Of a DNA stretch of 64,000 bases, positions 5,807 to 44,434 are shown in pieces. Source of the stretch: Candidatus Poribacteria bacterium (GTDB lineage Bacteria > Poribacteria > WGA-4E > WGA-3G); assembly GCA_003635315.1 (NCBI GenBank), contig PYJD01000040.1, positions 65,276 to 129,275 of the forward strand, read 5' to 3'. The first letter of the stretch is position 1; every line of letters begins with the position of its first letter. The notes under the pieces are model-generated. The model was not told the DNA's origin and did no database searches. It worked only from the letters and a program-made list of their open reading frames with translations. Position numbers and translations under genes: made by a program.

Positions 5807-6955
5807 ATGTCGCAAAAAAGACGTATAATGAATGAAGAAATTAAACAAGAGGATAAGTTCATTGATCTTGTTCTCGGGTGTTATTCATTCATAAAAGACA
5901 ATGCTAAAATTATTACAATTGTTACTGCAGTCGTAATTGTTGCAGTTGTCGGATATATGGTTTATGATCAGAATCAGAAAACCACCTATGCTAAAGCATC
6001 TGCCCACTATTCTGAAGCTATCACTACATATAAAGATGCTGAGAAGGATTTCTTAGATACATCCGAACCAACTAATGAGACAGAAAATGAAGATGAAACT
6101 GAAAAAACTACATTTCTTGAAGCAGAAGAAAAACTAAAAGCGTTTATTCAGAAATATCCAAATACCATATTTGCTGACAAAGCACAGTACCAATATGCAA
6201 AGTGTCTATACTATCAAGAGAAATATCCTGAAGCACGGAATGAATTTCAGGTCGTTGTAGACAATCATAAATCAGAAAATGAACTAATTGCATTGTATGC
6301 ACAAAAGGCTATCGGAAACTGTTACGAACAAGAAGGAGATTACACTAAAGCCATCTCCGCATATGAAGCAAATTCATTTCCAACAACTTCGAATCTCCCA
6401 CCACAAATTAGACAGTATGTCCTAACTGGCGCAAAATTTAATCAAGCCCTATGCTATGAAAAACTCAATCAAATTGAAGATGCTAAAGTCGCATATCAAG
6501 ATGTTATCGATGAATTTGAAAAAACCATTCAGACTGGATTAGACCAGAAAAGTCATGATTTACTCAATCATGCTAAAGAAGTAATTACAATAATCGAAGA
6601 TGATTTAGACCTAACTGAAGCCACGCAATTAGAGACCCAAGACCTCTCCTTTGATGCCCTTATAGCCTATACAGATACAATACGGAATTATAAGGTATCA
6701 AAGGATATTCAAGATGGTTTGCCAAAAGAAATACGTAAACGTATTAAAATTTACGAAGACTTAGCAACTTCTTTCATTAAAAATGTACAATTAGCAATAG
6801 AAGCAGATAAAATGGGTAGTCGTAGTTCCGCATTAAATAGTTACAATCGTATTACAAATCTTACTGATTTAGGATTAAATAGGAATTTCTATGAACGTGC
6901 CCTTCTAAATTATGACCGACTAAATCTTTCAGCACAAGTGGTGTCAAATGAATAA
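5807..6955 (+). CDS. membrane-anchored tetratricopeptide-repeat (TPR) protein
   Basis: 382 aa. It has an N-terminal TM helix (IITIVTAVVIVAVVGYMVY) followed by TPR-like repeats. It overlaps the downstream PD40 gene by 8 nt (operon). Confidence 0.6.
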   Translation: MSQKRRIMNEEIKQEDKFIDLVLGCYSFIKDNAKIITIVTAVVIVAVVGYMVYDQNQKTTYAKASAHYSEAITTYKDAEKDFLDTSEPTNETENEDETEKTTFLEAEEKLKAFIQKYPNTIFADKAQYQYAKCLYYQEKYPEARNEFQVVVDNHKSENELIALYAQKAIGNCYEQEGDYTKAISAYEANSFPTTSNLPPQIRQYVLTGAKFNQALCYEKLNQIEDAKVAYQDVIDEFEKTIQTGLDQKSHDLLNHAKEVITIIEDDLDLTEATQLETQDLSFDALIAYTDTIRNYKVSKDIQDGLPKEIRKRIKIYEDLATSFIKNVQLAIEADKMGSRSSALNSYNRITNLTDLGLNRNFYERALLNYDRLNLSAQVVSNE

Positions 6956-7955
6956 TTCAAGATATCATATTATACAAACGAAACTTATAAACGCACTTAT
7001 TTTTACTATAGTCTGTTTACTACTGATTCTTCCAGTTAATGTTGACGCACAGCCACAAGGGAGAATCGCCTATGCCGTTTCTGGATTCAATGACAAAGTA
7101 GGTAGATTAGATTTTAATCTCCATATGACAACTTTCACTCCAGATGGTGATTTTAAAACCCTACCCTTAAACCAATCAGGTATGTATCCTGCTTGGGGAC
7201 CTAAAGGGGATACTCTATATTTTATACAACGGGCTGCAACGCAGTCACATGTATATTCTATTAATATCAATAACCCCAGAAATAAAACCAAACACACCCC
7301 TGTTAGTGGAACATATCGTTTTTTAGCTGTATCACCCAATGGTAAAAAGTTGGCTTTTAATGGGTGGACGAATGAACAAAGACAACAGGATAACCAGATT
7401 TGGATTCTTGATATTGCTTCCGGGGAAATGGAAGTTATGACGCAAATCCCTCATTTTGGTAGATCCTTCTTTTTTTGGGGTATTACATGGTCACCAAATA
7501 GTAAACAACTCGCTTTCTCCTTGGAAAGATCTGGTGGGTTAGAACAGTTATACATATTAGATACTGAAACAAAGGAAATTGATATTCTAACTGAACTAAA
7601 TATCGATTTCTATCCTGTATGGTCCCCAGATGGAAAGAATATTCTGTTCCGCAGATGGAATAGGGAATTTGATACCCTAACTACTATTGATGTTGAGACA
7701 CGTGCAATCAAACCTTTATTTGATGTTGATAAACAGACCGGTATGTGGACAGATTGGTCATTTGATGGTCAACAAATTATCTATTCTCGATGGGGTGTTT
7801 TTTATCTACACAATATTGAGGATGGTAAAACCGAACAACTGTTTGAAATTGATGGTAGTATCTTCGTAATTTCATGGTGGAAACATGAGGTATTACCTGT
7901 TGAACCCAGACAGAAATTAGCTACAACTTGGGGAGATGTTAAGCAAAGCAATTGA
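6948..7955 (+). CDS. secreted TolB-like PD40 beta-propeller protein with conserved C-terminal LATTWG tail
   Basis: 335 aa. It has a signal peptide, repeated 'WSPDGK/WSPNSK' PD40 blades, and a C-terminus 'VLPVEPRQKLATTWGDVKQSN' shared with the three LamG paralogs. Confidence 0.7.
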   Translation: MNNSRYHIIQTKLINALIFTIVCLLLILPVNVDAQPQGRIAYAVSGFNDKVGRLDFNLHMTTFTPDGDFKTLPLNQSGMYPAWGPKGDTLYFIQRAATQSHVYSININNPRNKTKHTPVSGTYRFLAVSPNGKKLAFNGWTNEQRQQDNQIWILDIASGEMEVMTQIPHFGRSFFFWGITWSPNSKQLAFSLERSGGLEQLYILDTETKEIDILTELNIDFYPVWSPDGKNILFRRWNREFDTLTTIDVETRAIKPLFDVDKQTGMWTDWSFDGQQIIYSRWGVFYLHNIEDGKTEQLFEIDGSIFVISWWKHEVLPVEPRQKLATTWGDVKQSN

Positions 7956-8087: not shown

Positions 8088-10535
8088 ATGATTCCTATCG
8101 TAGAACAAGCCTTAGAATACGATAAAGTCAAAGTACTCCTAAAAAAACATACTGTCTCAGAGATGGGAAATATTCGGGTTGAGAACCTTTCCCCCTCTAA
8201 GTCTCTGGACTTAATTCGTCACGATTTGACACTATGTTCAGAGGTTAAGAAATTTCAACAACGTTGTGGAGACATTCCTTTAACAGGATTATCAGATATC
8301 AGCAAGACGCTAATCCATGCTTCTAAAACGGGTACGATTTTAGATCCAGAAGAACTTCTAAATATTGCTAAAGTTGCTCAACTCCCCTCTCAAATAAAGA
8401 AAAAGACTTATAATCAAAACCAAGATGAATTCCCATACTTTTTTGATATTGTTAGAACTCTCCCATCGTTCGACGAACTTGTTGACACCATCAACAATTG
8501 TATTAGTATGGAAGGTATTTTACTTGACCGTGCAAGTAAAGAACTCCGCTCTATCCGTCAAAGACTCAGAAAAATACGTACAAATATACATGATAAGTTA
8601 GAGACAATTCTCCGTTCACCAGATCATCAAAAATCAATTCAAGAATCTGTCATCACATCCCGAAATAATCGATTCGTTATTCCAATCAAGCAAGATGCAA
8701 GGGCATTTTTCAACGGGGTTGTCCAAGGGCAATCCACCAGTGGCGCAACTTGCTTTATTGAACCATTATCCGTCGTTGAAATGAATAACTCATTACATGA
8801 TGCAACCGAAGCAGAACAACGTGAGATACGACGGATATTACTTGAACTAACTGACCAACTACGCGAACAATTACCAGAGCTTGAGCAAGCACTTAATCTA
8901 CTTGGCGATCTTGATTTCCTTAGTGCAAAAGCACGTTTCAGTCAAGAACTCAATGCCATTGAACCAAAAATAAATAAAGAAGGAAATGTTAATCTAATAA
9001 AAGCAAGGCATCCGCTACTGGAATTTCAAACGCGCCAAAACAGAGAATCTATACAGAAATCTGATGATCACATTACATCTGATGAAAAACAAAAATCAAA
9101 ATTACCCGAAAGGGTGATACCAACTAACGTTCATATAGGGAGAGATTTTAATACACTCGTAATTACGGGTCCGAATACTGGTGGAAAAACTGTTGTATTA
9201 AAAACTATCGGCTTACTTTGTATGATGCTACAATCTGGCCTTCACATCCCTGCTGCTCCAAATAGTGAACTACCTATTTTTGACCATATATTTGCAGATA
9301 TTGGTGATGACCAAGGGATCGAACATAATCTCAGTACTTTCTCATCACATATATCCAAAATAGCAGATATGCTGAAATCCATTGAAGAATCGGAATCAAC
9401 CAGTTCCTTAGTTCTGTTAGATGAAATCGGAGCAGGAACTGACCCAACTGAGGGTACTGCTCTTGGCATGGCAATTCTCTCTTGGCTATCTGAACGAAAT
9501 GTTAGCACAATTGTTACTACACATTATGGTGCTCTAAAAGCATTTACGCATACTCATCATAAGATGGAGAATGCATCTATGGAGTTTGATTCAACTACAC
9601 TCCGACCTACATATCATCTGAAGATCGGAGTTCCCGGTAGTAGCAACGCAATTAAGATTGCTGAACAACTCGGTATACCTAATAGTATTCTATCATCCGC
9701 TGAATCATTTTTTGGAAATAATAATATTGCTGTTGAAGATCTACTAATGGAATTACAGGGAACACAACAGGATTTAGAGACAGAACGCGAAGAGTTACAT
9801 GAAAAGATTAAAGCCTGTGAATCAGAACATCAGAAATATAGAGAACTAATTAATGCTTTTGATTCGGATCAAAAGACTATCCAAGAAGAAGCTGAAAAGG
9901 AAGCGTTCGAAATAATCTCATCTGCTCGGAAAACTGTTGATAACGTCGTTTCTGACATTCGACGTGAGCAAGCCTCCAAAGCAAGTATTCGGGAGGCGTT
10001 TAACAAAATTGAAAATGCAAAAAAACAGCTTAAACCTGATCCTCCTGAAATACCAAAAACAAGAAAAATACCCATTTTAAACATTGGAGACAAGGTACGA
10101 ATCATAAGGCTAAACCGATTCGGTGAGGTAACTGCTATTGCTAAACAAGGACAAACCCCTATACGCATCAGTGTCGGTAAAATGCAGATGAATCTTTCAT
10201 ATAACGACATAGATAACGTTATATCTAAAAAAGAATCACGACATCTTACCCCTTCTGTTCTTGAGTTACAACATAACAAGGCTAATGAAATAAAAGAAGA
10301 GCTTTATATCCATGGTATGCTTGTTAAAGAAGGTTTAGATTTAACTGATAAATATCTGGATGATGCTTATCTTGCCGGATTATTAAAGGTCAGAATTCTT
10401 CATGGAAAAGGCACTGGGGCATTAAGGAGTGCAATCCATCAAGCATTAAATGAAAACCCTCATGTGGGTGATTATGAATATGCCCCACCAAGTGAAGGTG
10501 GCGAAGGTGTGACAGTCGTAAAGTTCAAAGAATAA
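8088..10535 (+). CDS. mutS2: endonuclease MutS2
   Basis: 815 aa. It has the MutS ABC ATPase Walker A 'GPNTGGKTVVLKT', the 'LLDEIGAGTDPTEG' motif and a C-terminal Smr domain (LHGKGTGALRSAIHQAL). Confidence 0.9.
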   Translation: MIPIVEQALEYDKVKVLLKKHTVSEMGNIRVENLSPSKSLDLIRHDLTLCSEVKKFQQRCGDIPLTGLSDISKTLIHASKTGTILDPEELLNIAKVAQLPSQIKKKTYNQNQDEFPYFFDIVRTLPSFDELVDTINNCISMEGILLDRASKELRSIRQRLRKIRTNIHDKLETILRSPDHQKSIQESVITSRNNRFVIPIKQDARAFFNGVVQGQSTSGATCFIEPLSVVEMNNSLHDATEAEQREIRRILLELTDQLREQLPELEQALNLLGDLDFLSAKARFSQELNAIEPKINKEGNVNLIKARHPLLEFQTRQNRESIQKSDDHITSDEKQKSKLPERVIPTNVHIGRDFNTLVITGPNTGGKTVVLKTIGLLCMMLQSGLHIPAAPNSELPIFDHIFADIGDDQGIEHNLSTFSSHISKIADMLKSIEESESTSSLVLLDEIGAGTDPTEGTALGMAILSWLSERNVSTIVTTHYGALKAFTHTHHKMENASMEFDSTTLRPTYHLKIGVPGSSNAIKIAEQLGIPNSILSSAESFFGNNNIAVEDLLMELQGTQQDLETEREELHEKIKACESEHQKYRELINAFDSDQKTIQEEAEKEAFEIISSARKTVDNVVSDIRREQASKASIREAFNKIENAKKQLKPDPPEIPKTRKIPILNIGDKVRIIRLNRFGEVTAIAKQGQTPIRISVGKMQMNLSYNDIDNVISKKESRHLTPSVLELQHNKANEIKEELYIHGMLVKEGLDLTDKYLDDAYLAGLLKVRILHGKGTGALRSAIHQALNENPHVGDYEYAPPSEGGEGVTVVKFKE

Positions 10536-10561: not shown

Positions 10562-12409
10562 ATGGCAACTAACCACTATATTCCACCAGAAACTATTGAT
10601 GAAATTCGTACCAGCAACAATATTGTGGATGTTATATCCGATTGTGGTGTACAATTAAAACAGGCTGGAAGGAATTATCAAGCACTATGTCCATTTCACG
10701 ATGAAAAAACACCCTCCTTTTCTGTTTCTCCTGAAAAGCAAATATTCTACTGTTTTGGTTGTCAAACTGGTGGTAATGTCATAAGTTTTGTGCAGAAACA
10801 TGAAGGAAAAAACTTCATCGAAACAATAAAATGGCTTGCAGATCGTGCCAACATATCATTACCTGAACGTGATTCAAAATCAAATGATAGACAGAAACTG
10901 ATAAATCGTCTCAGTGAATTAAATGCATTTGCAATTAAATATTATCATGAACTGCTCCGCACCGGTCAACATAGTCAACAAGCACGTGAATATCTAAAAA
11001 ACCGTGGTGTTATTTCACAGACAATTAACCATTTCCAAATCGGGTATGCGAAGCAACAGAGACAAGATATTGTTAAAGCTGCAAAACACGAAGGATATTC
11101 AATACAACAATTGTTAGATGTTGGATTAATTAAAAACGAAGACTTAGGTCCACAGGATAGGTTTTGGAATCGGATTCTATTTCCAATACATAATGCACAA
11201 GGCACACCAGTTGGATTCGGGGGAAGATCTTTATCTGAAGAACACCAACCAAAGTATCTTAATTCACCCGCTACTATCTTATATGACAAGAGTAAAATCC
11301 TATACAACCTGGATAAGGCAAGACAATCTATATCAAGGAAACAGTCTGCTCTTCTCGTTGAGGGGTATATGGATGTAATTATGCTACATCAACATGGGAT
11401 TGAGAATGTGATTGCATCATCAGGTACATCTCTGAGTCAAGAGCACGCATTTCTCTTGAGACGTTTTACCCCAGATGTAGTCATTGTTTTTGATGGTGAC
11501 AGTTCAGGTCTAAAGGCAGCTCAACGTGGACTACACTGTTTAGTCGGTAAAGGTATCCGTGTTCGCATTGCCTTAATACCTGATGGTGGTGATCCAGATT
11601 CTTTTGTCAAAGAACACGGTGCTGATGAATTTGATAAACTCATTGATAAAGCTATAAACCTAATTGAATTCCAAATTCAATCTGCTATACAGGGGAATAA
11701 TATTCGTAATCCAGAAGTTAAATCACAAGTCATGAAAGATACATGTGAAATACTTGTTAATATTCAGAACCCAGTTGAACGCGCAGAATATGTGAAATAT
11801 GCCGTAAAAGAACTTGATATAGACGAAGGATTAATTTGGCGAGAATTGCGTAAATCAGGATTAAAAGATACACCCATCCCTCGAAAATTTAACCAACAGA
11901 AGATAAAAGATAAAAAGTTATCACCCCGCGAACAAATCGAACTTCAATTCGTCCAATCCTTAATCCATGCTCCTGAACATATTCGGACTGTTAGACAAGA
12001 ATTTGATATCAACGATATACAAGATCCTCTACTCGCAAGAATCATGCAAATACTATGGGATGCAGCAGAGACAAATGAAGATGTTGATATACAACAACTC
12101 ATAAATACTATTGAAGATGAGAAATTAAGTGGTTTTATAACCAACACACTTCTTAACAAGAAGGATATTCCAAACTACTATACACGGATTCAAGGTTGTA
12201 TTGTTAAGTTGAAAACCTACCTTATTCAAGATATTGAGCGACAAGTACGAAGTTCATCACAGTCAGGTGATAATGATCTTGATACACTCAAGGAATTAGT
12301 TGACATTTCAAATAGAAGACGAAATTATGTTCAAGAGAAACAATCTGAACAAAAAGAAAATATGAATAAGTCTGAGATAGCAACGGATACACCCGTAAAT
12401 TCTAAGTAA
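10562..12409 (+). CDS. dnaG: DNA primase
   Basis: 615 aa. It has the CHC2 zinc finger 'CPFHDEKTPSFSV...CFGCQTGGN' and a Toprim domain 'LVEGYMDVI...VFDGDSSG'. Confidence 0.9.
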   Translation: MATNHYIPPETIDEIRTSNNIVDVISDCGVQLKQAGRNYQALCPFHDEKTPSFSVSPEKQIFYCFGCQTGGNVISFVQKHEGKNFIETIKWLADRANISLPERDSKSNDRQKLINRLSELNAFAIKYYHELLRTGQHSQQAREYLKNRGVISQTINHFQIGYAKQQRQDIVKAAKHEGYSIQQLLDVGLIKNEDLGPQDRFWNRILFPIHNAQGTPVGFGGRSLSEEHQPKYLNSPATILYDKSKILYNLDKARQSISRKQSALLVEGYMDVIMLHQHGIENVIASSGTSLSQEHAFLLRRFTPDVVIVFDGDSSGLKAAQRGLHCLVGKGIRVRIALIPDGGDPDSFVKEHGADEFDKLIDKAINLIEFQIQSAIQGNNIRNPEVKSQVMKDTCEILVNIQNPVERAEYVKYAVKELDIDEGLIWRELRKSGLKDTPIPRKFNQQKIKDKKLSPREQIELQFVQSLIHAPEHIRTVRQEFDINDIQDPLLARIMQILWDAAETNEDVDIQQLINTIEDEKLSGFITNTLLNKKDIPNYYTRIQGCIVKLKTYLIQDIERQVRSSSQSGDNDLDTLKELVDISNRRRNYVQEKQSEQKENMNKSEIATDTPVNSK

Positions 12410-36999: not shown

Positions 37000-37779
37000 T
37001 CAACTATATTTTATTTTATTTTCATAAGACCGTTTATAATATTCCCTCTCTTTTAAACTTGAAGCAGCCGCTTCATCAATCAAAAACACAACATCCGGAT
37101 GCATTTGTAAGGCTGTTGCCGGTACCATAGCACTAATCGGTCCCTCAATTGTCTTGGCAATGGCATCTTTTTTATTTAAGCCACTCGCTAATAACAGACA
37201 TTGCTTTGCATCTGTTATTGTACCAATTCCCATCGTAATCGCCATCTCCGGAACTGCATTGATATCATCCCCAAAATGGACTGCATTGGCTTCGAGTGTA
37301 CTTTTCGATAAAGTTGCTATACGAGTACGAGAAGCAAATGATGACCCCGGTTCATTAAACCCTATATGTCCGTCTTTCCCAATTCCGAGAACCTGTATAT
37401 CAATACCACCACATCTTCTAATAGAATCTTCATACTCTTGGCAAAATGACACATGGTTTTCAACTATATTCTGTGGTAAATACTGATTTTTCTTTGGTAT
37501 GTTTACATGATTAAAAAAATGCTTATTCATGAAGGTATGATAACTTTGGGGATGATCCTTCGGTATCCCAATGTATTCATCCAGGTTAAATGTAATAACC
37601 TTTGAAAAATCTACACCTTCTTCCTTATGCATTTGCACAAGTAATTTGTAAAGTCCAATTGGGGTACTTCCCGTAGCTAAACCTAATACGAGATTTGGTT
37701 TTCTAATTACTGCCTTACGAATAACATTCGCAGCAATTACAGATAATTTCTGAGAATTGGGTTGAATAATTACTTCCAT
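37000..37779 (-). CDS. nagB: glucosamine-6-phosphate deaminase
   Basis: 259 aa with 'GLATGSTPIGLYKLL' and 'VITFNLDEYIGIPKDHPQSYHTFM' NagB motifs. Confidence 0.9.
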   Translation of the reverse strand: MEVIIQPNSQKLSVIAANVIRKAVIRKPNLVLGLATGSTPIGLYKLLVQMHKEEGVDFSKVITFNLDEYIGIPKDHPQSYHTFMNKHFFNHVNIPKKNQYLPQNIVENHVSFCQEYEDSIRRCGGIDIQVLGIGKDGHIGFNEPGSSFASRTRIATLSKSTLEANAVHFGDDINAVPEMAITMGIGTITDAKQCLLLASGLNKKDAIAKTIEGPISAMVPATALQMHPDVVFLIDEAAASSLKEREYYKRSYENKIKYS

Positions 37780-37793
37780 CGGAATTGAAAGAG

Positions 37794-38582
37794 TTATACC
37801 TCCCCGGCAATAATTTTACTCATATCACTGCTAATTTTATTCAATGTACCTTCAGGATCATCCTGATCTACAGGTAATTCTGCAGTCATATAGTCATCAT
37901 AACCTACATCATTCAATGCTGACATTACTTCATTCCAATCAATTGTGCATTCATCAATTAAATATGTAAACCGATGTTCGTTGGAATTAAAGCCTTTCAC
38001 ATGCACCTTAGAGATGCGACTATTGAGAGAACGTATCCAGTGTTGTGGAAATCCGTAGGCAACAATATTTCCAACATCAAAATATGCCGAGACAGATTCA
38101 CTCTCAAATTCATCAAGATACTTGGCAAACTCCATTGGACTTAATAGGAATTTGTTCCAGACATTTTCTATTGCTATGGTAAGTCCTTTTTCCTGAGCGA
38201 TCGGAATTAACTTTCTAATTTCTTCTTGTGAACGTTCGTATGCTTCTTCATAAGTTGTATTTGGGTTAACTACTGCTGCAACAAGCAACACTGTATCCGC
38301 ACCAATAGTTTCTGCTGTTTCCAGAGATGTAACGACAGCATTCCGAGATTCTTCACGTACAGTAGCATCAGCGTCTGAGAGCGGATGAGACCAATGTTTC
38401 CCATTCATAACGCTACACAATTCTATATCATTTTCGTCAGCAAGTTGTTTAATTTCAAGTCGTTGTTCCTGAGTTCCCAAAGGACCTATTTCTACTCCAT
38501 CAAACCCAGCATCTTTGGCATTTTTAAATCTTGCTTCAGTATTACCCCCTGGTACGGAACCAATACATATTCCTTTTTTCAT
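37794..38582 (-). CDS. sugar phosphate isomerase/epimerase (xylose-isomerase-like TIM barrel)
   Basis: 262 aa AP-endonuclease-2/TIM-barrel family pattern (…AIENVWNKF…HVKGFN…). It lies 14 nt upstream of nagB on the same strand. Confidence 0.7.
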   Translation of the reverse strand: MKKGICIGSVPGGNTEARFKNAKDAGFDGVEIGPLGTQEQRLEIKQLADENDIELCSVMNGKHWSHPLSDADATVREESRNAVVTSLETAETIGADTVLLVAAVVNPNTTYEEAYERSQEEIRKLIPIAQEKGLTIAIENVWNKFLLSPMEFAKYLDEFESESVSAYFDVGNIVAYGFPQHWIRSLNSRISKVHVKGFNSNEHRFTYLIDECTIDWNEVMSALNDVGYDDYMTAELPVDQDDPEGTLNKISSDMSKIIAGEV

Positions 38583-38928: not shown

Positions 38929-39662
38929 TGAAATTGTGCTATCCCGCCAGTCCTACACTGGTTTTACAGCCACTTTTTTCAGGTAAGTAGAATTTACCAA
39001 AATGATGAATATTGTGTCTTTTACTCTTTTACATGTTCTCTGACTTTTGTTCTTTTGGATGGGCGATATTATACGCATCCATACTATCATAATCCATTTG
39101 ATCTGTCTGAATTTTATTTTCAATACACATTTATTCCTTAACATAATTTTTACGAGACTAAAGTATAGATATAACCACACTTGACTACAGAAATCTCTCC
39201 TTTTTGTTTAGCAAAAGTATAGTAGAACTACACAATATAATATTATATCTATTTATTTCTATTATGGCAACTCTTTTTAAATATTTTGATTAATCCTTTA
39301 GTTGTAAGCTGTTTTGGTCTTCTTCATTTTATTTTGAGTATTTTATAGTACATCTCACTAATCATATATTTGATTAGTATACCATTTTAATAATCGTATT
39401 TCCATTAACCGTTGTAAAGAAAGGCGGGAATCGGAATTCCTGCTACACAGGAGAGTGTGATAATGACATACCATTTAATGAGACGCAGCCAGATTGGATA
39501 GAGGGACCGTTGTCCGTTTCTCCGCATGGGAAATTGCCATCGTTGTGGGAGAGAAAAAACAGAACTTTTCACAGTAGATTTTATGCAAAATCAACAGAAA
39601 ATCCTACAGACAATAAGTTCTTTGGGTAATAACATATCTAAGAAATGGTATAAGACTCTTAT

Positions 39663-39697
39663 ATAAAAACAAAAAAGGGCAACTTCAGAGTTGCCCC
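39663..39697 (-). terminator. intrinsic terminator of LamG paralog 1 (minus strand)
   Basis: On the minus strand: GGGCAACTctgaAGTTGCCC followed by TTTTTTGTTTTT. Confidence 0.75.
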
Positions 39698-39715
39698 TTC
39701 TATGTTATTTAGTAC

Positions 39716-40501
39716 TTAGTCTCTATTGGACTTTATCTGCCCCCAAGATGTTGCCAGTTTATCCGTAGGTTCTACAGGAAGAAGATCTCCGTCCATAACA
39801 CTTTGTACTTCATCAGCATCAAGTGCTCTGTCATATACATATAGATCGTCAATATAGAATGTAGCTGCTCTATAGCCTGTTTTACCAATGTATAGTTTTT
39901 CAGCTCCTTGTGCATGCTTGGCAGGAACACCTATCTTCAATTGTTCTTCACCATTAATATAAAAGTGTAAAGTACCATCTTTCTTAATACCTGCAACATG
40001 GTACCACTGTTTCAATTCAAATAAACTACCTTCACCGGTTGGACCAGCACAACCTGTTCCTTGGTTTCCAGGATTGAAACGCCAATGTATATTTAATGAA
40101 TTTGGACAGATCCAGATCCCAGGTGATCTATCTGAACCAGGAGCTTTTTTCGCAATTATTTGACTCCAGGCACCGTTGTGCGCAGAAATGAAGTTTAACC
40201 AAAATAGGTAACTATTATCTTGATAATCTTCCAATTCTTTGAATGAATTTACCTGGACATCCGCATTGGCATCTCGAATTTCAAGTGAGCCTTTACCATA
40301 TTTTTTCTCACCAGTTGATATATCAGCATTCCCAACTATATTCGCATGGTTTCCACCGCCAGTTTCATCTTCGATTTTTCCTCCATCCTCTCTATCAAAA
40401 CCGAAGTATAAGATCAAACCCTGATCTTTAACCGCAGCAGGTGATGTCTGAATTGCCACAAATAGTAACAGTATTAATAGTGTATATATTGTATATTTCA
40501 T
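39716..40501 (-). CDS. secreted LamG-like (Laminin_G_3 / concanavalin-A-like lectin) domain protein, paralog 1, with C-terminal LATTWG tail
   Basis: 261 aa with a signal peptide. It has 'LILYFGFDREDGGKIEDETGGGNHA' and 'DDLYVYDRALDADEV', which are LamG jellyroll signatures. The C-terminus is 'LLPVEPTDKLATSWGQIKSNRD'. Confidence 0.75.
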   Translation of the reverse strand: MKYTIYTLLILLLFVAIQTSPAAVKDQGLILYFGFDREDGGKIEDETGGGNHANIVGNADISTGEKKYGKGSLEIRDANADVQVNSFKELEDYQDNSYLFWLNFISAHNGAWSQIIAKKAPGSDRSPGIWICPNSLNIHWRFNPGNQGTGCAGPTGEGSLFELKQWYHVAGIKKDGTLHFYINGEEQLKIGVPAKHAQGAEKLYIGKTGYRAATFYIDDLYVYDRALDADEVQSVMDGDLLPVEPTDKLATSWGQIKSNRD

Positions 40502-40630
40502 TTCATTCCTCCGTAGTCAGATTAAACCATTTCAGTATTGATTAAATATCCTATATTAGGTATAAAGTAAGTAAAAATGATAATAAATATAGGGACAGTA
40601 CATAATCTGTCCCTATATTATAGATTGTAA

Positions 40631-41449
40631 TTAATCTCTACTTGTCTTGACCTGTCCCCAAGTTGTTGTAAGTTTAGCTTGAGGTTGGACAGGAAGTAGA
40701 TCACCATCCATCACACTTGCCACTTCACCCTCATCAAGGGCACGGTCATATACATAAAGATCATCGAGAATAAACTTTGCTGAGTTATATCCCGTTCTTC
40801 CAATGTATAACCGCTCATTGCCTTGGGCATGGTCGGCGGGAACATTGTTTTGCTGCGTCCGTTTACCATTTACATAGAATGATATCTGACTACCTTTTTT
40901 CGAACCAGCGATATGATACCATTCACCTATCTCAAAAACAGAATCCTCACCAGTAGGACCTGCACAATGGGGACCTTGGTTACCCGGGTTAAATCGCCAA
41001 TGGATATGAAGAGGTATACGGCTACATGTCCATATACCTGGTGATCGATCTGAACCTGGAGCCTTCTTTGCAATGATCTGATCCCAACCCCCAGAGTTTG
41101 CTTTTGTGAAATTAACCCAAAAAAGGAATGTATTATCCTGATAGTCTTCTAATTCATTAAATGAATCTACCGTTACGCTTGAGGTATTTGAATCGCATAA
41201 TAACGCACCTTTGCCGTGCACAACATCATCAGTGACAATTTTCGCATCAGCAACAATTGTCGCATCATTTCCACTACCAGTTTCATCAATGATCTTACCA
41301 CCACTCTCTTTGTCAAAACTGAAGTAGAGGATTAAACCGTCGTCTTTAACAGCCGCACTTGCAGTGTGTAGCCCACCTATAAATAGGAATAGGACTGACA
41401 AATATACCAGTAATTTCATTTTTACCTCCGTGATTGAGTTATGCTCCAA
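40631..41449 (-). CDS. secreted LamG-like domain protein, paralog 2, with C-terminal LATTWG tail
   Basis: 272 aa (possibly starting at the internal MKLLV). The conserved core 'QIIAKKAPGSDRSPGIWTC...HIHWRFNPGNQGPHCAGPTGE' is shared with paralogs 1 and 3. The C-terminus is 'LLPVQPQAKLTTTWGQVKTSRD'. Confidence 0.75.
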   Translation of the reverse strand: MEHNSITEVKMKLLVYLSVLFLFIGGLHTASAAVKDDGLILYFSFDKESGGKIIDETGSGNDATIVADAKIVTDDVVHGKGALLCDSNTSSVTVDSFNELEDYQDNTFLFWVNFTKANSGGWDQIIAKKAPGSDRSPGIWTCSRIPLHIHWRFNPGNQGPHCAGPTGEDSVFEIGEWYHIAGSKKGSQISFYVNGKRTQQNNVPADHAQGNERLYIGRTGYNSAKFILDDLYVYDRALDEGEVASVMDGDLLPVQPQAKLTTTWGQVKTSRD

Positions 41450-41768
41450 TTTATTATCACTATAAAGAACAATTTTATAGTATCATTATACTATATTAGA
41501 GTAGTTTAAATGTCAAGAAAAAACAGGTTTATTTAGTTTTCTAAATTTCCAATACATTTTATCTATTCCGTTATTGTTTATATTGGTATCTTATATAGGT
41601 CTTTAGTTCCATCGGGACGGAATGTTTATAGAATAAATGCAAACCACCTCTCTTGAGATCCGACAAATGCCATATGGAGAATCTCGATTGCAGATTATAG
41701 TAGAGTGAATAAATAATGAGACATTTCAACTTTTTGCGAAGAACGTCCAGCGTAGGGGCGAGGTGACC

Positions 41769-41791
41769 TCGCCTATTCTAAAATGTTCCAT
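41769..41791. repeat. GC-rich palindromic motif CGTAGGGGCGAGGT-G-ACCTCGCC (one of three CGTAGGGG(C/T)GAGG copies)
   Basis: It is a perfect 8-bp inverted repeat GGCGAGGT/ACCTCGCC in the divergent LamG2/LamG3 intergenic region. Related copies lie at 41847-41860 and 4397-4420. Confidence 0.5.
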
Positions 41792-42238
41792 TAATTCAAA
41801 AAATTACTATAAATAAATATTTCGCTAATCCAGACCATAAAAACATCGTAGGGGCGAGGTTTCCCAACCCGTATATTACCGAAAATCTAAATAACCGATG
41901 AATTTTAAAACTAAATAACCTTCAAGAAAAACCGTTGATTGGAATTTTTATGTATGTATTACTTATTTTATTTTGTGGAGGATTACATGGTTATCTATTG
42001 GGAGAAATTGAATCTGAAAACGGTTGCATGAATTAGTTATTTTATTTATGATTTTAACTTGACAGATTTAATCCTATCTTGTAAAATTGTTTTAATTATA
42101 TGAAAAGTGTGTTTTCTTTAATCCTGAAGAAAATATACAGAATCCTAATAAATGCAACTGGTTCTCAGGATCGTATAAACAAGCTTTTCTCACCAAACAA
42201 AATAGTAGTTATTGTATATCATGAGGAGGAATTAACTC

Positions 42239-43018
42239 ATGCGTTTTTTCATTTATCTTTTTGTTGCTACACTCTTCTGTGTTGGCACTGTTCTCTCCAC
42301 AGAAGCTGCATTGGATGATAATCTCGCACTTTACTTCAGTTTTGATAAGGACATTGATGGTACAGTTTATGATGGAACTGGAAACGGAAATCACGGTACG
42401 CTGAATCTGGCAACTATTAATGCTGATGATAAAAAAGTCGGATTAGCATCATTAGAAATAAAAGATGCAAATGCCGTTGTCGAAGTTGAATCGTTTTTTG
42501 ACTTAGAAGTATACCAAGACAACAGTTTTGTTTTTTGGCTTAACTTTATCGCTGCTCATAATGGTGCTTGGAGTCAGATTTTTGCTAAAAAAGCTCCAGG
42601 GTCTGACCGTTCTCCAGGGGTCTGGATCTGTCCCAACTCTCTAAATATCCATTATAGATTTAATCCAGGTAACCGAGGTACAGGTTGTGTTGGTCCAGGA
42701 GGCGAGGGTCAATTATTTGAAACAAATAAATGGTATCATATTGCTGGTGTCAAAGAGAGTGGTAAATTTAGATTCTACATAGATGGTGCTCAAATTGAAG
42801 AACACGATGTACCGTCTCCACATGCTCAAGGTCCTGAAAAACTTTATATCGGGAAAACAGGCTATCGATCCGCTACTTTCCTCATGGATGACTTTTTCCT
42901 TTTCACAAGAGCAATTTCTGCCGATGAAGTCAATGCCATTAAGAATGGGCAACTCATTGCTGTTGAACCTGAGGATAAATTAACCACTACATGGGGTATC
43001 ATCAAAGACAAACAGTAG
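42239..43018 (+). CDS. secreted LamG-like domain protein, paralog 3, with C-terminal LATTWG tail
   Basis: 259 aa with a signal peptide and the RBS 'gaggagg'. It has the same conserved core and Cys pair (WICPNS…GCVGP). The C-terminus is 'LIAVEPEDKLTTTWGIIKDKQ'. Confidence 0.75.
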   Translation: MRFFIYLFVATLFCVGTVLSTEAALDDNLALYFSFDKDIDGTVYDGTGNGNHGTLNLATINADDKKVGLASLEIKDANAVVEVESFFDLEVYQDNSFVFWLNFIAAHNGAWSQIFAKKAPGSDRSPGVWICPNSLNIHYRFNPGNRGTGCVGPGGEGQLFETNKWYHIAGVKESGKFRFYIDGAQIEEHDVPSPHAQGPEKLYIGKTGYRSATFLMDDFFLFTRAISADEVNAIKNGQLIAVEPEDKLTTTWGIIKDKQ

Positions 43019-43055
43019 TAATTCCAAAACGTCATTATTATTAAAGTTATTCATT

Positions 43056-43092
43056 AGAGGGGAAAATCTATGTTTATTTTCCCCTCTAATCT
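43056..43092 (+). terminator. intrinsic terminator of LamG paralog 3
   Basis: 'TTAGAGGGGAAAATctatgtttATTTTCCCCTCTAA' is a long perfect stem followed by a T-rich tail. Confidence 0.6.
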
Positions 43093-43120
43093 TTAGTTAT
43101 CTAACATTGGACTTAAGCAC

Positions 43121-44434
43121 ATGAAACAAACAATTCAGATGTGCTTATATTTATTCATTCTTTTTCAATTAGTTCTACGTTCTGTTTGGTGTGAAGATAA
43201 TTTACTACCGAATGACCCTATTGATCTGGGTATACACTATTTAGAAATGGAACAATATGATAAGGCTTATGATGCTTTTGATGCAGTTAGAAAAAAAGAA
43301 CCCAGTAGCGGCATCTATTGTTATATTGGAATCGTCTTACAAGAACAAAATAGACTCAGTGATGCCGTAGATGCATATCAAAAAGCCTTAACCTATTCCG
43401 CACCACAACAAATCCATTCCTCTGCCCACCTTCATTTGGGAATTGTTTACAAAGCACAAGGTAATTTAGAACTCGCTGAATCACATCTTCAGGAAGCCCT
43501 TATACGCGCGCCCAATACTGTTGAGGCATATATACACCTCGGTGAAACATATCTTCGGCAACACAAATTGGACAAGGCTGAAAAAGCATATCGCCATAGT
43601 ATAAAATTGAACCCTATTTATACTGAATCCTACTATGGTTTAGGGAGAGTGGAAGAATTGCAGAACCATTTTGACTCTGCAATTCAACAATATCGTCTTG
43701 CAATAGAAAAAAATCCATACGCTCCTGACGCATATTATCGTCTTTCATTGGTTCTCCGACGTATAGATAAGTCTGGAGATGCTGAAGCAGCAATGCATCA
43801 GTTTAAAAAAATGAAGGATTATTCAGATAATGTACATAGATTTCGAGAGACGATTTATAAAAATCCGAATAATCCTATCTTGTATCTGAAATTAGGACAA
43901 TTACACGAACAACATGATAATCAATCGGATGCCCAAAGAGTTTACCAGATGGCTATCTCTCTGTATCCAACTTATCTACCGGTATATCATAGCCTTGGTG
44001 AAGTCTTAATCGGTAAAAGAGAGTTAGAAAAAGCAACGGCTGTATATCATAAAATCACGGAAATTGACCCCAATGATGTTCAAGCTTATCTAAAATTAGG
44101 TGTCATATATATAAATCGTAGTAAATATGACCCTGCAATAACTTCATTTAAGCAAGCAATTAATGTTGATAACACATCTGCTGAAGCCTATAATAACCTC
44201 GCTCGCGTCTATGCAGGACTTGGTGATAAAACAAGTGAAGCAATACATCTGGCGAAACGTGCAATTGAGATATCACCGATTTCAAAACATTATGACACGC
44301 TTGCTTACTCTTACTATCGCAATAAACAATATACGGAAGCCTTAAAAGCTATTGAGCATGCACTCACATTGACTCCAGGGGTTAAGGCTTTTGAAAATCT
44401 TCGATCCGAAATCCAAGAAAAAATCAAACAGTAA
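43121..44434 (+). CDS. secreted tetratricopeptide-repeat (TPR) protein
   Basis: 437 aa with a signal peptide and many 34-aa TPR units (…AYxxLGxxYxxxxxxxxAxxxYxxAL… repeated about 10 times). Confidence 0.75.
   Translation: MKQTIQMCLYLFILFQLVLRSVWCEDNLLPNDPIDLGIHYLEMEQYDKAYDAFDAVRKKEPSSGIYCYIGIVLQEQNRLSDAVDAYQKALTYSAPQQIHSSAHLHLGIVYKAQGNLELAESHLQEALIRAPNTVEAYIHLGETYLRQHKLDKAEKAYRHSIKLNPIYTESYYGLGRVEELQNHFDSAIQQYRLAIEKNPYAPDAYYRLSLVLRRIDKSGDAEAAMHQFKKMKDYSDNVHRFRETIYKNPNNPILYLKLGQLHEQHDNQSDAQRVYQMAISLYPTYLPVYHSLGEVLIGKRELEKATAVYHKITEIDPNDVQAYLKLGVIYINRSKYDPAITSFKQAINVDNTSAEAYNNLARVYAGLGDKTSEAIHLAKRAIEISPISKHYDTLAYSYYRNKQYTEALKAIEHALTLTPGVKAFENLRSEIQEKIKQ

Follow-up and report, generated by a model that had tools for sequence, protein, structure and literature searches.

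What does a cluster of three genes for exported lectin-like proteins do in a member of a phylum of sponge symbionts? The question is raised by a stretch of 64,000 nucleotides from a Candidatus Poribacteria contig (PYJD01000040.1, positions 65,276 to 129,275 of the forward strand; denoted the window, with positions counted from its first nucleotide), which contains three genes for LamG proteins, LamG-A, LamG-B and LamG-C, followed by a gene for an exported TPR protein. Poribacteria abound as uncultured symbionts of sponges, and the lectin-like, TPR and propeller proteins that they export are believed to bring about contact with the host matrix and with glycans (PMC3909097). An original prediction, made from the DNA sequence, held that the trio represents a diversifying family of surface or secreted binding modules. 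Our analysis points instead to ancient, Poribacteria-specific LamG_3 paralogs that probably carry a modular C-terminal sorting or docking tag devoid of a transmembrane segment.

The three LamG genes

LamG-A (39716–40501, minus strand) encodes a protein of 261 residues, LamG-B (40631–41419, minus strand) one of 262 residues and LamG-C (42239–43018, plus strand), the copy preceding the TPR gene, one of 259 residues. The open reading frame of LamG-A matches Pfam PF13385 with an E-value of 2.8e-19, and the Laminin_G_3 matches of the three copies score 70.2, 67.0 and 60.2 bits (gathering score 27.6), which bears out the prediction of three LamG genes of about 260 codons at these positions. The open reading frame of LamG-B runs to 41449 (TTG start, 272 residues), and the most likely start is the conserved ATG at 41419. 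LamG-B equals P0049 (262 residues, NCBI C6497_14595) in length and is identical to it over the first 30 and the last 32 residues, the ends being the only parts compared.

As anticipated, each protein has a signal peptide of its own (LamG-A, 40436–40501, minus strand; LamG-B, 41354–41419, minus strand; LamG-C, 42239–42307, plus strand), with a basic N-terminus, a hydrophobic core and an AxA-like end (SPA/A, ASA/A and TEA/A in the three proteins); this is a heuristic call, made by eye and by hydropathy. Pairwise identity among the three proteins is 59–61%. A core (QIIAKK to GEG in LamG-A), which had been described as near-identical and as containing two conserved cysteines, lies at 40028–40162 in LamG-A (minus strand), 40943–41080 in LamG-B (minus strand) and 42575–42709 in LamG-C (plus strand). 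The quoted core sequence is exact in LamG-A, has mismatches at 6 of 45 positions in LamG-C, and has 8 mismatches and one inserted residue in LamG-B (80–87% identity for these two copies); it has the lowest column entropy in the LamG family. Both cysteines of the core, C132 and C151, reach a conservation of at least 90% among 119 family members.

A conserved C-terminal tail on unrelated exported proteins

The three proteins share a tail of about 20 residues, LLPVEPxDKLxTTWGxLKxxRD, found at 39719–39784 in LamG-A (minus strand; LLPVEPTDKLATSWGQIKSNRD), at 40634–40699 in LamG-B (minus strand; LLPVQPQAKLTTTWGQVKTSRD) and at 42953–43015 in LamG-C (plus strand; LIAVEPEDKLTTTWGIIKDKQ). Its general form is [LI]x[PAS]V[EQ]Px[DG]K[LV]xT[TS]W[GA]x[ILVM]K, followed by 1–6 residues and the stop codon. 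The tail lies outside the fold predicted by AlphaFold2, with a predicted local distance difference test (pLDDT) score below 50, and is nevertheless among the most conserved parts of the protein and the segment under the strongest constraint at the peptide level: between orthologs, the nonsynonymous distance (dN) is 0 at a synonymous distance (dS) of 0.58–1.33. Across 142 genes, the L, V, K, W and K residues of the motif are invariant and third codon positions vary by 0.5–1.9 bits. Invariant residues combined with free third positions indicate that selection acts on the peptide and not on the DNA. None of the Pfam and NCBIfam models matches the tail and a full-text literature search for the motif found nothing; the tail is an undescribed element.

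A 32-column profile of the tail was searched against 1.84 billion protein cluster representatives at E ≤ 1e-3. The search yielded 144 representatives, nearly all of them matched at the extreme C-terminus, with 1–6 residues between motif and stop in about 130. The carriers comprise diverse LamG_3 families, DUF1080/3-keto-disaccharide-hydrolase proteins, PD40 and Kelch propellers, and proteins that match no Pfam family; nearly all full-length carriers have signal peptides. All named carriers belong to Poribacteria, the one exception being a record assigned to the sponge Geodia barretti. About 10 open reading frames from outside the LamG family in related loci also end with the tail. In the window itself, the tail is also found at the end of an unrelated protein, a PD40/TolB-like β-propeller with a signal peptide (6948–7955, plus strand), tagged VLPVEPRQKLATTWGDVKQSN at 7890–7952 and scoring 34.3 bits with the tail hidden Markov model. 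The tail is absent from other exported proteins of the window, for example the TPR protein, and so marks only a subset of exported proteins.

The start of the PD40 gene at 6948–7955 overlaps the end of a gene for a membrane-anchored, YbgF-like TPR protein (5807–6955, plus strand), so that the two form a second pair of tagged gene and TPR gene in the window. At 548–5097 of L052 (L001, L002 and so on are labels of related loci in other Poribacteria genomes), three tagged genes are found within 5 kb, two of them encoding DUF1080-like proteins of about 230 residues and one a PD40 propeller, which indicates that tagged genes can cluster.

A possible sorting or docking tag

As the tail occurs on unrelated exported proteins, we interpret it as a modular C-terminal tag for addressing or docking. 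What was found is a single short motif at the extreme C-terminus, constrained at the level of the peptide, predicted to be unstructured and common to Sec-exported proteins of unrelated folds; this combination fits a tag that is read by a partner. Once a carrier has passed through the Sec pathway, a protein partner would recognise the tail and would retain the carrier in the cell envelope, assemble it there or display it. As receptor or assembly factor, the TPR protein encoded nearby would be the most plausible candidate, which is the weakest step of the proposed mechanism. The LamG domains, with their invariant polar patch and probable disulfide, may bind one conserved ligand, for which an amino-sugar-containing glycan is a candidate in view of the neighbouring genes, and the three paralogs would then be specialised variants rather than a diversifying repertoire. 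Only tentatively do we extend this proposal to its most specific form, in which LPVEPxDKLxTTWGxLK would be a new, Poribacteria-specific sorting signal lacking a transmembrane segment and read by a dedicated periplasmic receptor, with the TPR protein as the candidate.

Several points weigh against a docking tag. Support for the tag role comes from comparative sequence evidence only, and the link to the TPR protein consists only of gene adjacency amid syntenic, unrelated housekeeping genes. Most carriers have ConA-like folds (LamG_3, DUF1080), so the role of the tail may be tied to the fold. A terminator-like hairpin parts LamG-C from the TPR gene in the window, and LamG-A is located 1.1 kb away from the gene for an epimerase-like protein on its other side. 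Moreover, the frequency of the tag per genome is an extrapolation from 1.5 Mb of non-random loci.

If correct, the most specific form of the proposal would amount to a new route by which some of the lectin-like and propeller proteins are, after export, retained or displayed in the envelope within a phylum of sponge symbionts. With the tag present in at least 144 protein clusters, a candidate "tagged exoproteome" could be listed from any poribacterial genome. The finding also names a candidate partner gene, that of the TPR protein, and peptides and heterologous expression offer ways of testing the role of the tag that need no cultivation. The LamG trio itself is a core module that has been conserved and may serve amino-sugar use, not a fast-evolving repertoire. 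What appears noteworthy, as far as comparative sequence data allow, is the shared C-terminal tag together with the conserved pairing of LamG and TPR genes.

The TPR gene and its syntenic neighbours

The gene that follows LamG-C (43121–44434, plus strand) encodes an exported, periplasmic TPR protein of 437 residues with a signal peptide, 100% identical to C6497_14605. AlphaFold2 predicts an all-helical structure with about 11 repeats (pLDDT 93.6), and the best matches in the PDB are the TPR superhelices of OGT and SPINDLY. We rejected the possibility that it is a lipoprotein: a cysteine follows the signal peptide in only 49 of 80 orthologs, and a serine does so in 20.

Related loci numbered 79, of which 49 contain two adjacent LamG copies, 9 three and 21 one. 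The surrounding genes are syntenic in 57–70 of the 79; the syntenic set consists of carB, two unknown genes, a sigma-54 activator, nagB, a sugar-epimerase-like TIM barrel, the LamG genes, the TPR gene, an FMN reductase and an RNase HII-like gene. The LamG cluster is thus part of a syntenic core locus of the phylum. The tightest link within this locus is the adjacency of LamG and TPR genes. The gene immediately downstream of a LamG gene of the family, on the same strand, is the TPR gene in 65 of 70 loci; the modal gap is 62–63 bp, and the adjacency persists where the unit is inverted, as it is in the window. Of these 65 loci, 38 have a spacer of 62–63 bp, which seems to be more constancy than neutral intergenic DNA would show; the spacer in the window measures 102 bp (43019–43120) and contains a hairpin.

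Two genes of the set point to sugar metabolism. nagB (37000–37779, minus strand) encodes glucosamine-6-phosphate deaminase (TIGR00502, 318 bits; cut-off 236.9), and the gene beside it (37794–38582, minus strand) encodes a TIM barrel resembling sugar(-phosphate) epimerases or isomerases (Pfam AP_endonuc_2; NCBIfam matches below cut-off). The order of one or more LamG genes, TPR gene, epimerase-like gene and nagB is collinear in 45 of 70 related loci. In the window and its clade, the unit of LamG-C and TPR gene has the opposite orientation to that of the epimerase-like gene and nagB.

These genes invite an explanation that overlaps with the docking tag and that we consider rather doubtful: the LamG and TPR proteins could be the exported substrate-capture part of an operon for amino-sugar or glycan utilisation, with the tail of secondary importance. 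The TPR and epimerase-like genes are adjacent and on one strand in the 45 collinear loci, and in 32 of these they abut or overlap by 1–4 bp (by 4 bp in 21), which suggests co-translation; the match of nagB is that of a bona fide equivalog, and the LamG fold resembles carbohydrate-binding modules. However, 20 kb of unrelated housekeeping genes, carB and the RNase HII-like gene among them, share this synteny, so that adjacency alone is weak evidence. In addition, the unit of LamG-C and TPR gene is inverted here, each LamG gene is followed by its own terminator, and the block contains neither a transporter nor a glycoside hydrolase. The original prediction had set the trio apart from a metabolic operon. 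The separate terminators agree with that view, but the collinear order in 45 of 70 loci weakens so clear a dismissal, and the abutting TPR and epimerase-like genes of 32 loci mean that the amino-sugar link should not be set aside. On the evidence of gene order, there is possibly a functional link to amino-sugar metabolism.

Comparison with known C-terminal signals and anchors

The docking-tag reading has several known counterparts. One parallel is the PEP-CTERM/exosortase system (TIGR02595), in which a short, lineage-restricted C-terminal tag is likewise found on many Sec-exported proteins. The poribacterial tail opens with PVEP, similar to Pro-x-Glu-Pro, and closes with basic residues, and a TPR protein is encoded nearby; the match of this protein to PrsT (132 bits) is far below the 312-bit cut-off. 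In contrast to PEP-CTERM, the poribacterial tail has no hydrophobic helix: the mean Eisenberg hydrophobicity of DKLxTTWGxIK is about 0, and only about 11 residues separate PVEP from the basic end. Neither TIGR02595 nor any other CTERM model matched LamG-A, LamG-B or LamG-C in an NCBIfam scan at E ≤ 1, and no exosortase was seen within the 64-kb window. Unlike the TPR lipoprotein PrsT of PEP-CTERM systems, the poribacterial TPR protein is not a lipoprotein.

The C-terminal domain of the type IX secretion system (T9SS; TIGR04183) is also a C-terminal element of Sec-exported proteins of varied folds, including β-propellers. This domain is folded and comprises 70–100 residues, whereas the poribacterial tail is about 20 residues long and predicted to be unstructured. 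TIGR04183 did not match the LamG or the PD40 carriers. Kamke et al. 2014 described TIGR04183 C-terminal sorting domains on poribacterial proteins in the absence of a matching secretion system, which left the route unresolved (PMC3909097). The tail described here is a different element from the TIGR04183 domain but bears on the same secretion question.

By analogy, the arrangement may also be likened to PEX5 with its PTS1 signals, or to Hop and Tom70 with the EEVD motif of Hsp70/90: a TPR superhelix stands next to proteins with a conserved, linear C-terminal motif, and Tom71 bound to the tail of Hsp70 is among the weaker structural matches of the poribacterial TPR protein. In those systems the motif is at the very end of the chain, whereas the conserved part of the poribacterial tag is located 1–6 residues from the carboxy terminus.

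The tail might alternatively be a generic physical anchor that needs no specific partner, either as an in-plane amphipathic helix of the type seen in PBP5 or through covalent linkage of an invariant lysine to peptidoglycan. AlphaFold2 draws residues 245–258 as a helix, with low confidence, and the two invariant lysines and the basic end would be compatible with such a role. We tried and rejected the amphipathic membrane anchor: the hydrophobic moment of the tail is no higher than that of shuffled sequences and its mean hydrophobicity is about 0. As the tail is not notably amphipathic, a plain membrane-surface anchor is unlikely. The conservation of PVEP, DKL and TTWG goes far beyond what a physicochemical anchor needs, and we hold an anchor of either kind to be unlikely.

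Fold and family of the LamG proteins

The mature LamG proteins of about 240 residues consist of a single LamG/ConA-like jellyroll domain. An AlphaFold2 model of LamG-A based on a 119-sequence alignment shows the jellyroll over residues 25–240 (pLDDT 89), with 16 β-strands in two sheets across residues 29–223 (pLDDT >90). The conserved core spans the model strands 113–118, 128–131 and 138–142. Foldseek found 362 matches in the PDB at E ≤ 0.001; lectin-like jellyrolls rank first, with a TM-score of about 0.6 and sequence identities of 13–19%; among the structural matches are the lectin-like domain of trypanosomal sialidase, the Hc-N jellyroll of BoNT and domain 4 of AbnA. A sequence search of the PDB gave generic matches only, to the C-terminal end of LamG_3, and an NCBIfam scan at E ≤ 1 gave a weak TafC match for LamG-A and nothing for LamG-B and LamG-C.

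Membership of the Laminin_G_3/ConA-like superfamily is indicated by the above-threshold profile matches, by the predicted jellyroll and by the typical C-terminal motif DDxxxYxRALxxxE, which is present in the LamG proteins of the window. These proteins differ from other Laminin_G_3 domains in that they are stand-alone and exported, not accessory modules, and in that they contain a conserved insert, KKAPGSDRSPGIW.C...RFNPGNQG..CAGP, which bears the cysteine pair. The family differs further in its restriction to Poribacteria, its extra tail and its low identity to any solved structure. We collected 332 homologs, all of about 260 residues, and wherever the name given by the source mentions an organism, it is Candidatus Poribacteria; a scan of prokaryotes, with each species represented by one genome, gave 168 matches, almost all in metagenome-assembled genomes of Poribacteria. 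No literature on LamG in Poribacteria was found. Taken together, these data define a new, uncharacterised, Poribacteria-restricted LamG_3 family of Sec-exported proteins. They agree with the expectation of secreted modules, here single-domain jellyrolls with separate promoters and terminators, and show that the proteins are not ordinary members of a known glycoside-hydrolase or lectin family.

Improbable, in our judgement, is the idea that the LamG proteins are ConA-fold enzymes of the lyase or hydrolase type rather than binding modules. It draws on the many invariant polar residues (D36, D45, D95, Q114, K118, R125, H139, N146, H168, K173, H196 and D218) and on weak, sub-threshold matches to 3-keto-disaccharide hydrolase, DUF1961 and DUF6250. 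Nevertheless, all of these matches stay below the curated thresholds, structural comparison ranks lectin-like domains without catalytic function highest, and inspection by eye did not recognise a known catalytic motif.

Age of the paralogs and selection

Comparison with related loci showed that orthologs are far more similar than the paralogs of the window are to one another. The LamG-A ortholog in L001 is 93% identical and the LamG-C orthologs in L001 and L002 are 95–96% identical, and the nearest relative of LamG-B, in L027, is 79% identical. At a distance cut-off of 40%, LamG-A and LamG-C fall into one cluster and LamG-B into another. Synonymous sites are saturated between the paralogs, which excludes recent duplication or gene conversion. 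The dN/dS ratio was determined by the pairwise Nei-Gojobori method for ortholog pairs with unsaturated dS. It amounts to 0.04–0.10 overall (0.044–0.069 for LamG-C) and to 0.00–0.15 within the mature regions, including the N-terminal third, the core and the loop. Around the LamG genes, neither repeats nor a reverse transcriptase nor signs of recombination were seen. As judged by these comparisons, the trio consists of anciently diverged paralogs under strong purifying selection.

According to the column entropy of the family, variable residues are concentrated at positions 38–80, 105–110, 158–165 and 174–192, and residues 111–147 and the tail are conserved. The strong variability originally noted in the N-terminal third and in the loop is roughly matched by this profile; the conserved tail had not been singled out. 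The substitution data indicate that the variable loops are slowly evolving differences between old subfamilies. That the N-terminal third and the loops evolve fast to track ligands, as in a diversifying family of secreted binding modules, is very improbable and largely refuted, since the localised variability around a conserved core and the several copies per locus with their own promoters and terminators are outweighed by orthologs at 79–96% identity against paralogs at about 60%, by a dN/dS of 0.03–0.15 in the variable regions, by saturated synonymous sites between paralogs, by a locus that is syntenic across the phylum and by the lack of repeats, reverse transcriptase and recombination signs around the genes.

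LamG-B belongs to a subfamily that is typical of other poribacterial clades and is positioned between a conserved promoter and LamG-A. This promoter-like site (41488–41516, minus strand) has 10 of 12 matches, and the 74 bp flanking it are 93–96% conserved in L002 and L038. In L002, the same promoter directly precedes the LamG-A ortholog, from which it follows that LamG-B was either gained at this position in the lineage of the window or lost in its relatives.

Promoters, terminators and spacers

The spacers measure 129 bp between LamG-A and LamG-B, 789 bp between LamG-B and LamG-C, and 1133 bp between LamG-A and the next gene, with a GC content of 0.26–0.30 compared with 0.36 for the window. 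Terminator-like hairpins are located after LamG-A (39672–39701, minus strand), after LamG-B (40586–40619, minus strand) and between LamG-C and the TPR gene (43053–43090, plus strand). Long, AT-rich spacers and a terminator for every copy had both been predicted, and both are present. A search of the long spacers for Rfam-type RNA families gave no match near gathering scores, the only matches being the terminator hairpins.

The promoter of LamG-C (42059–42087, plus strand) reads TTGACA-17-TAAAAT (TTGACA-17-TGTAAAAT) with a TG upstream, 11 of 12 positions matching; across 9 genomes, neither of the hexamers nor this TG varies. It is followed by a leader of about 150 nucleotides (42088–42238, plus strand) with invariant sequence blocks. 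These blocks are conserved even though the synonymous sites of the gene are saturated (L001–L007, L038). The leader may form a long-range helix and a hairpin enclosing the Shine-Dalgarno sequence and the AUG. All predicted pairs in the leader are invariant, with no covariation, and the minimum-free-energy z-score is −1.48.

The GC-rich palindromes reported between the second and the third LamG gene correspond to one clear palindrome and a repeat of its left half. The palindrome, GGCGAGGT-G-ACCTCGCC (also given as GTAGGGGCGAGGT-G-ACCTCGCC), lies at 41752–41773 (plus strand) in the spacer between LamG-B and LamG-C, and its 17-nucleotide left half is repeated at 41844–41860. The hairpin GTAGGGGCGAGGT(n)CCTCGCC is also present between genes in distant Poribacteria genomes, at 7689–7701 of L009 and at 9751–9763 of L054, in the latter again between two LamG genes. 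L019 contains the left half only (11246–11258) and L028 a looser variant at about 6817. The hairpin may be a small, dispersed element similar to repetitive extragenic palindromes.

A blastx search of the 1.1-kb spacer gave nothing significant; its sole recognisable item is a short remnant of a tag. This sequence (39444–39557, plus strand) is the decayed end of a tagged PD40-type gene (..QPDWIEGPLSVSPHGKLPSLWERK), resembles the tagged PD40 C-termini in L052, L024 and L040, and is probably a pseudogene remnant. It lies within the AT-rich spacer of 1.1 kb, whose counterpart in the close relative L001 is much shorter, at about 216 bp.

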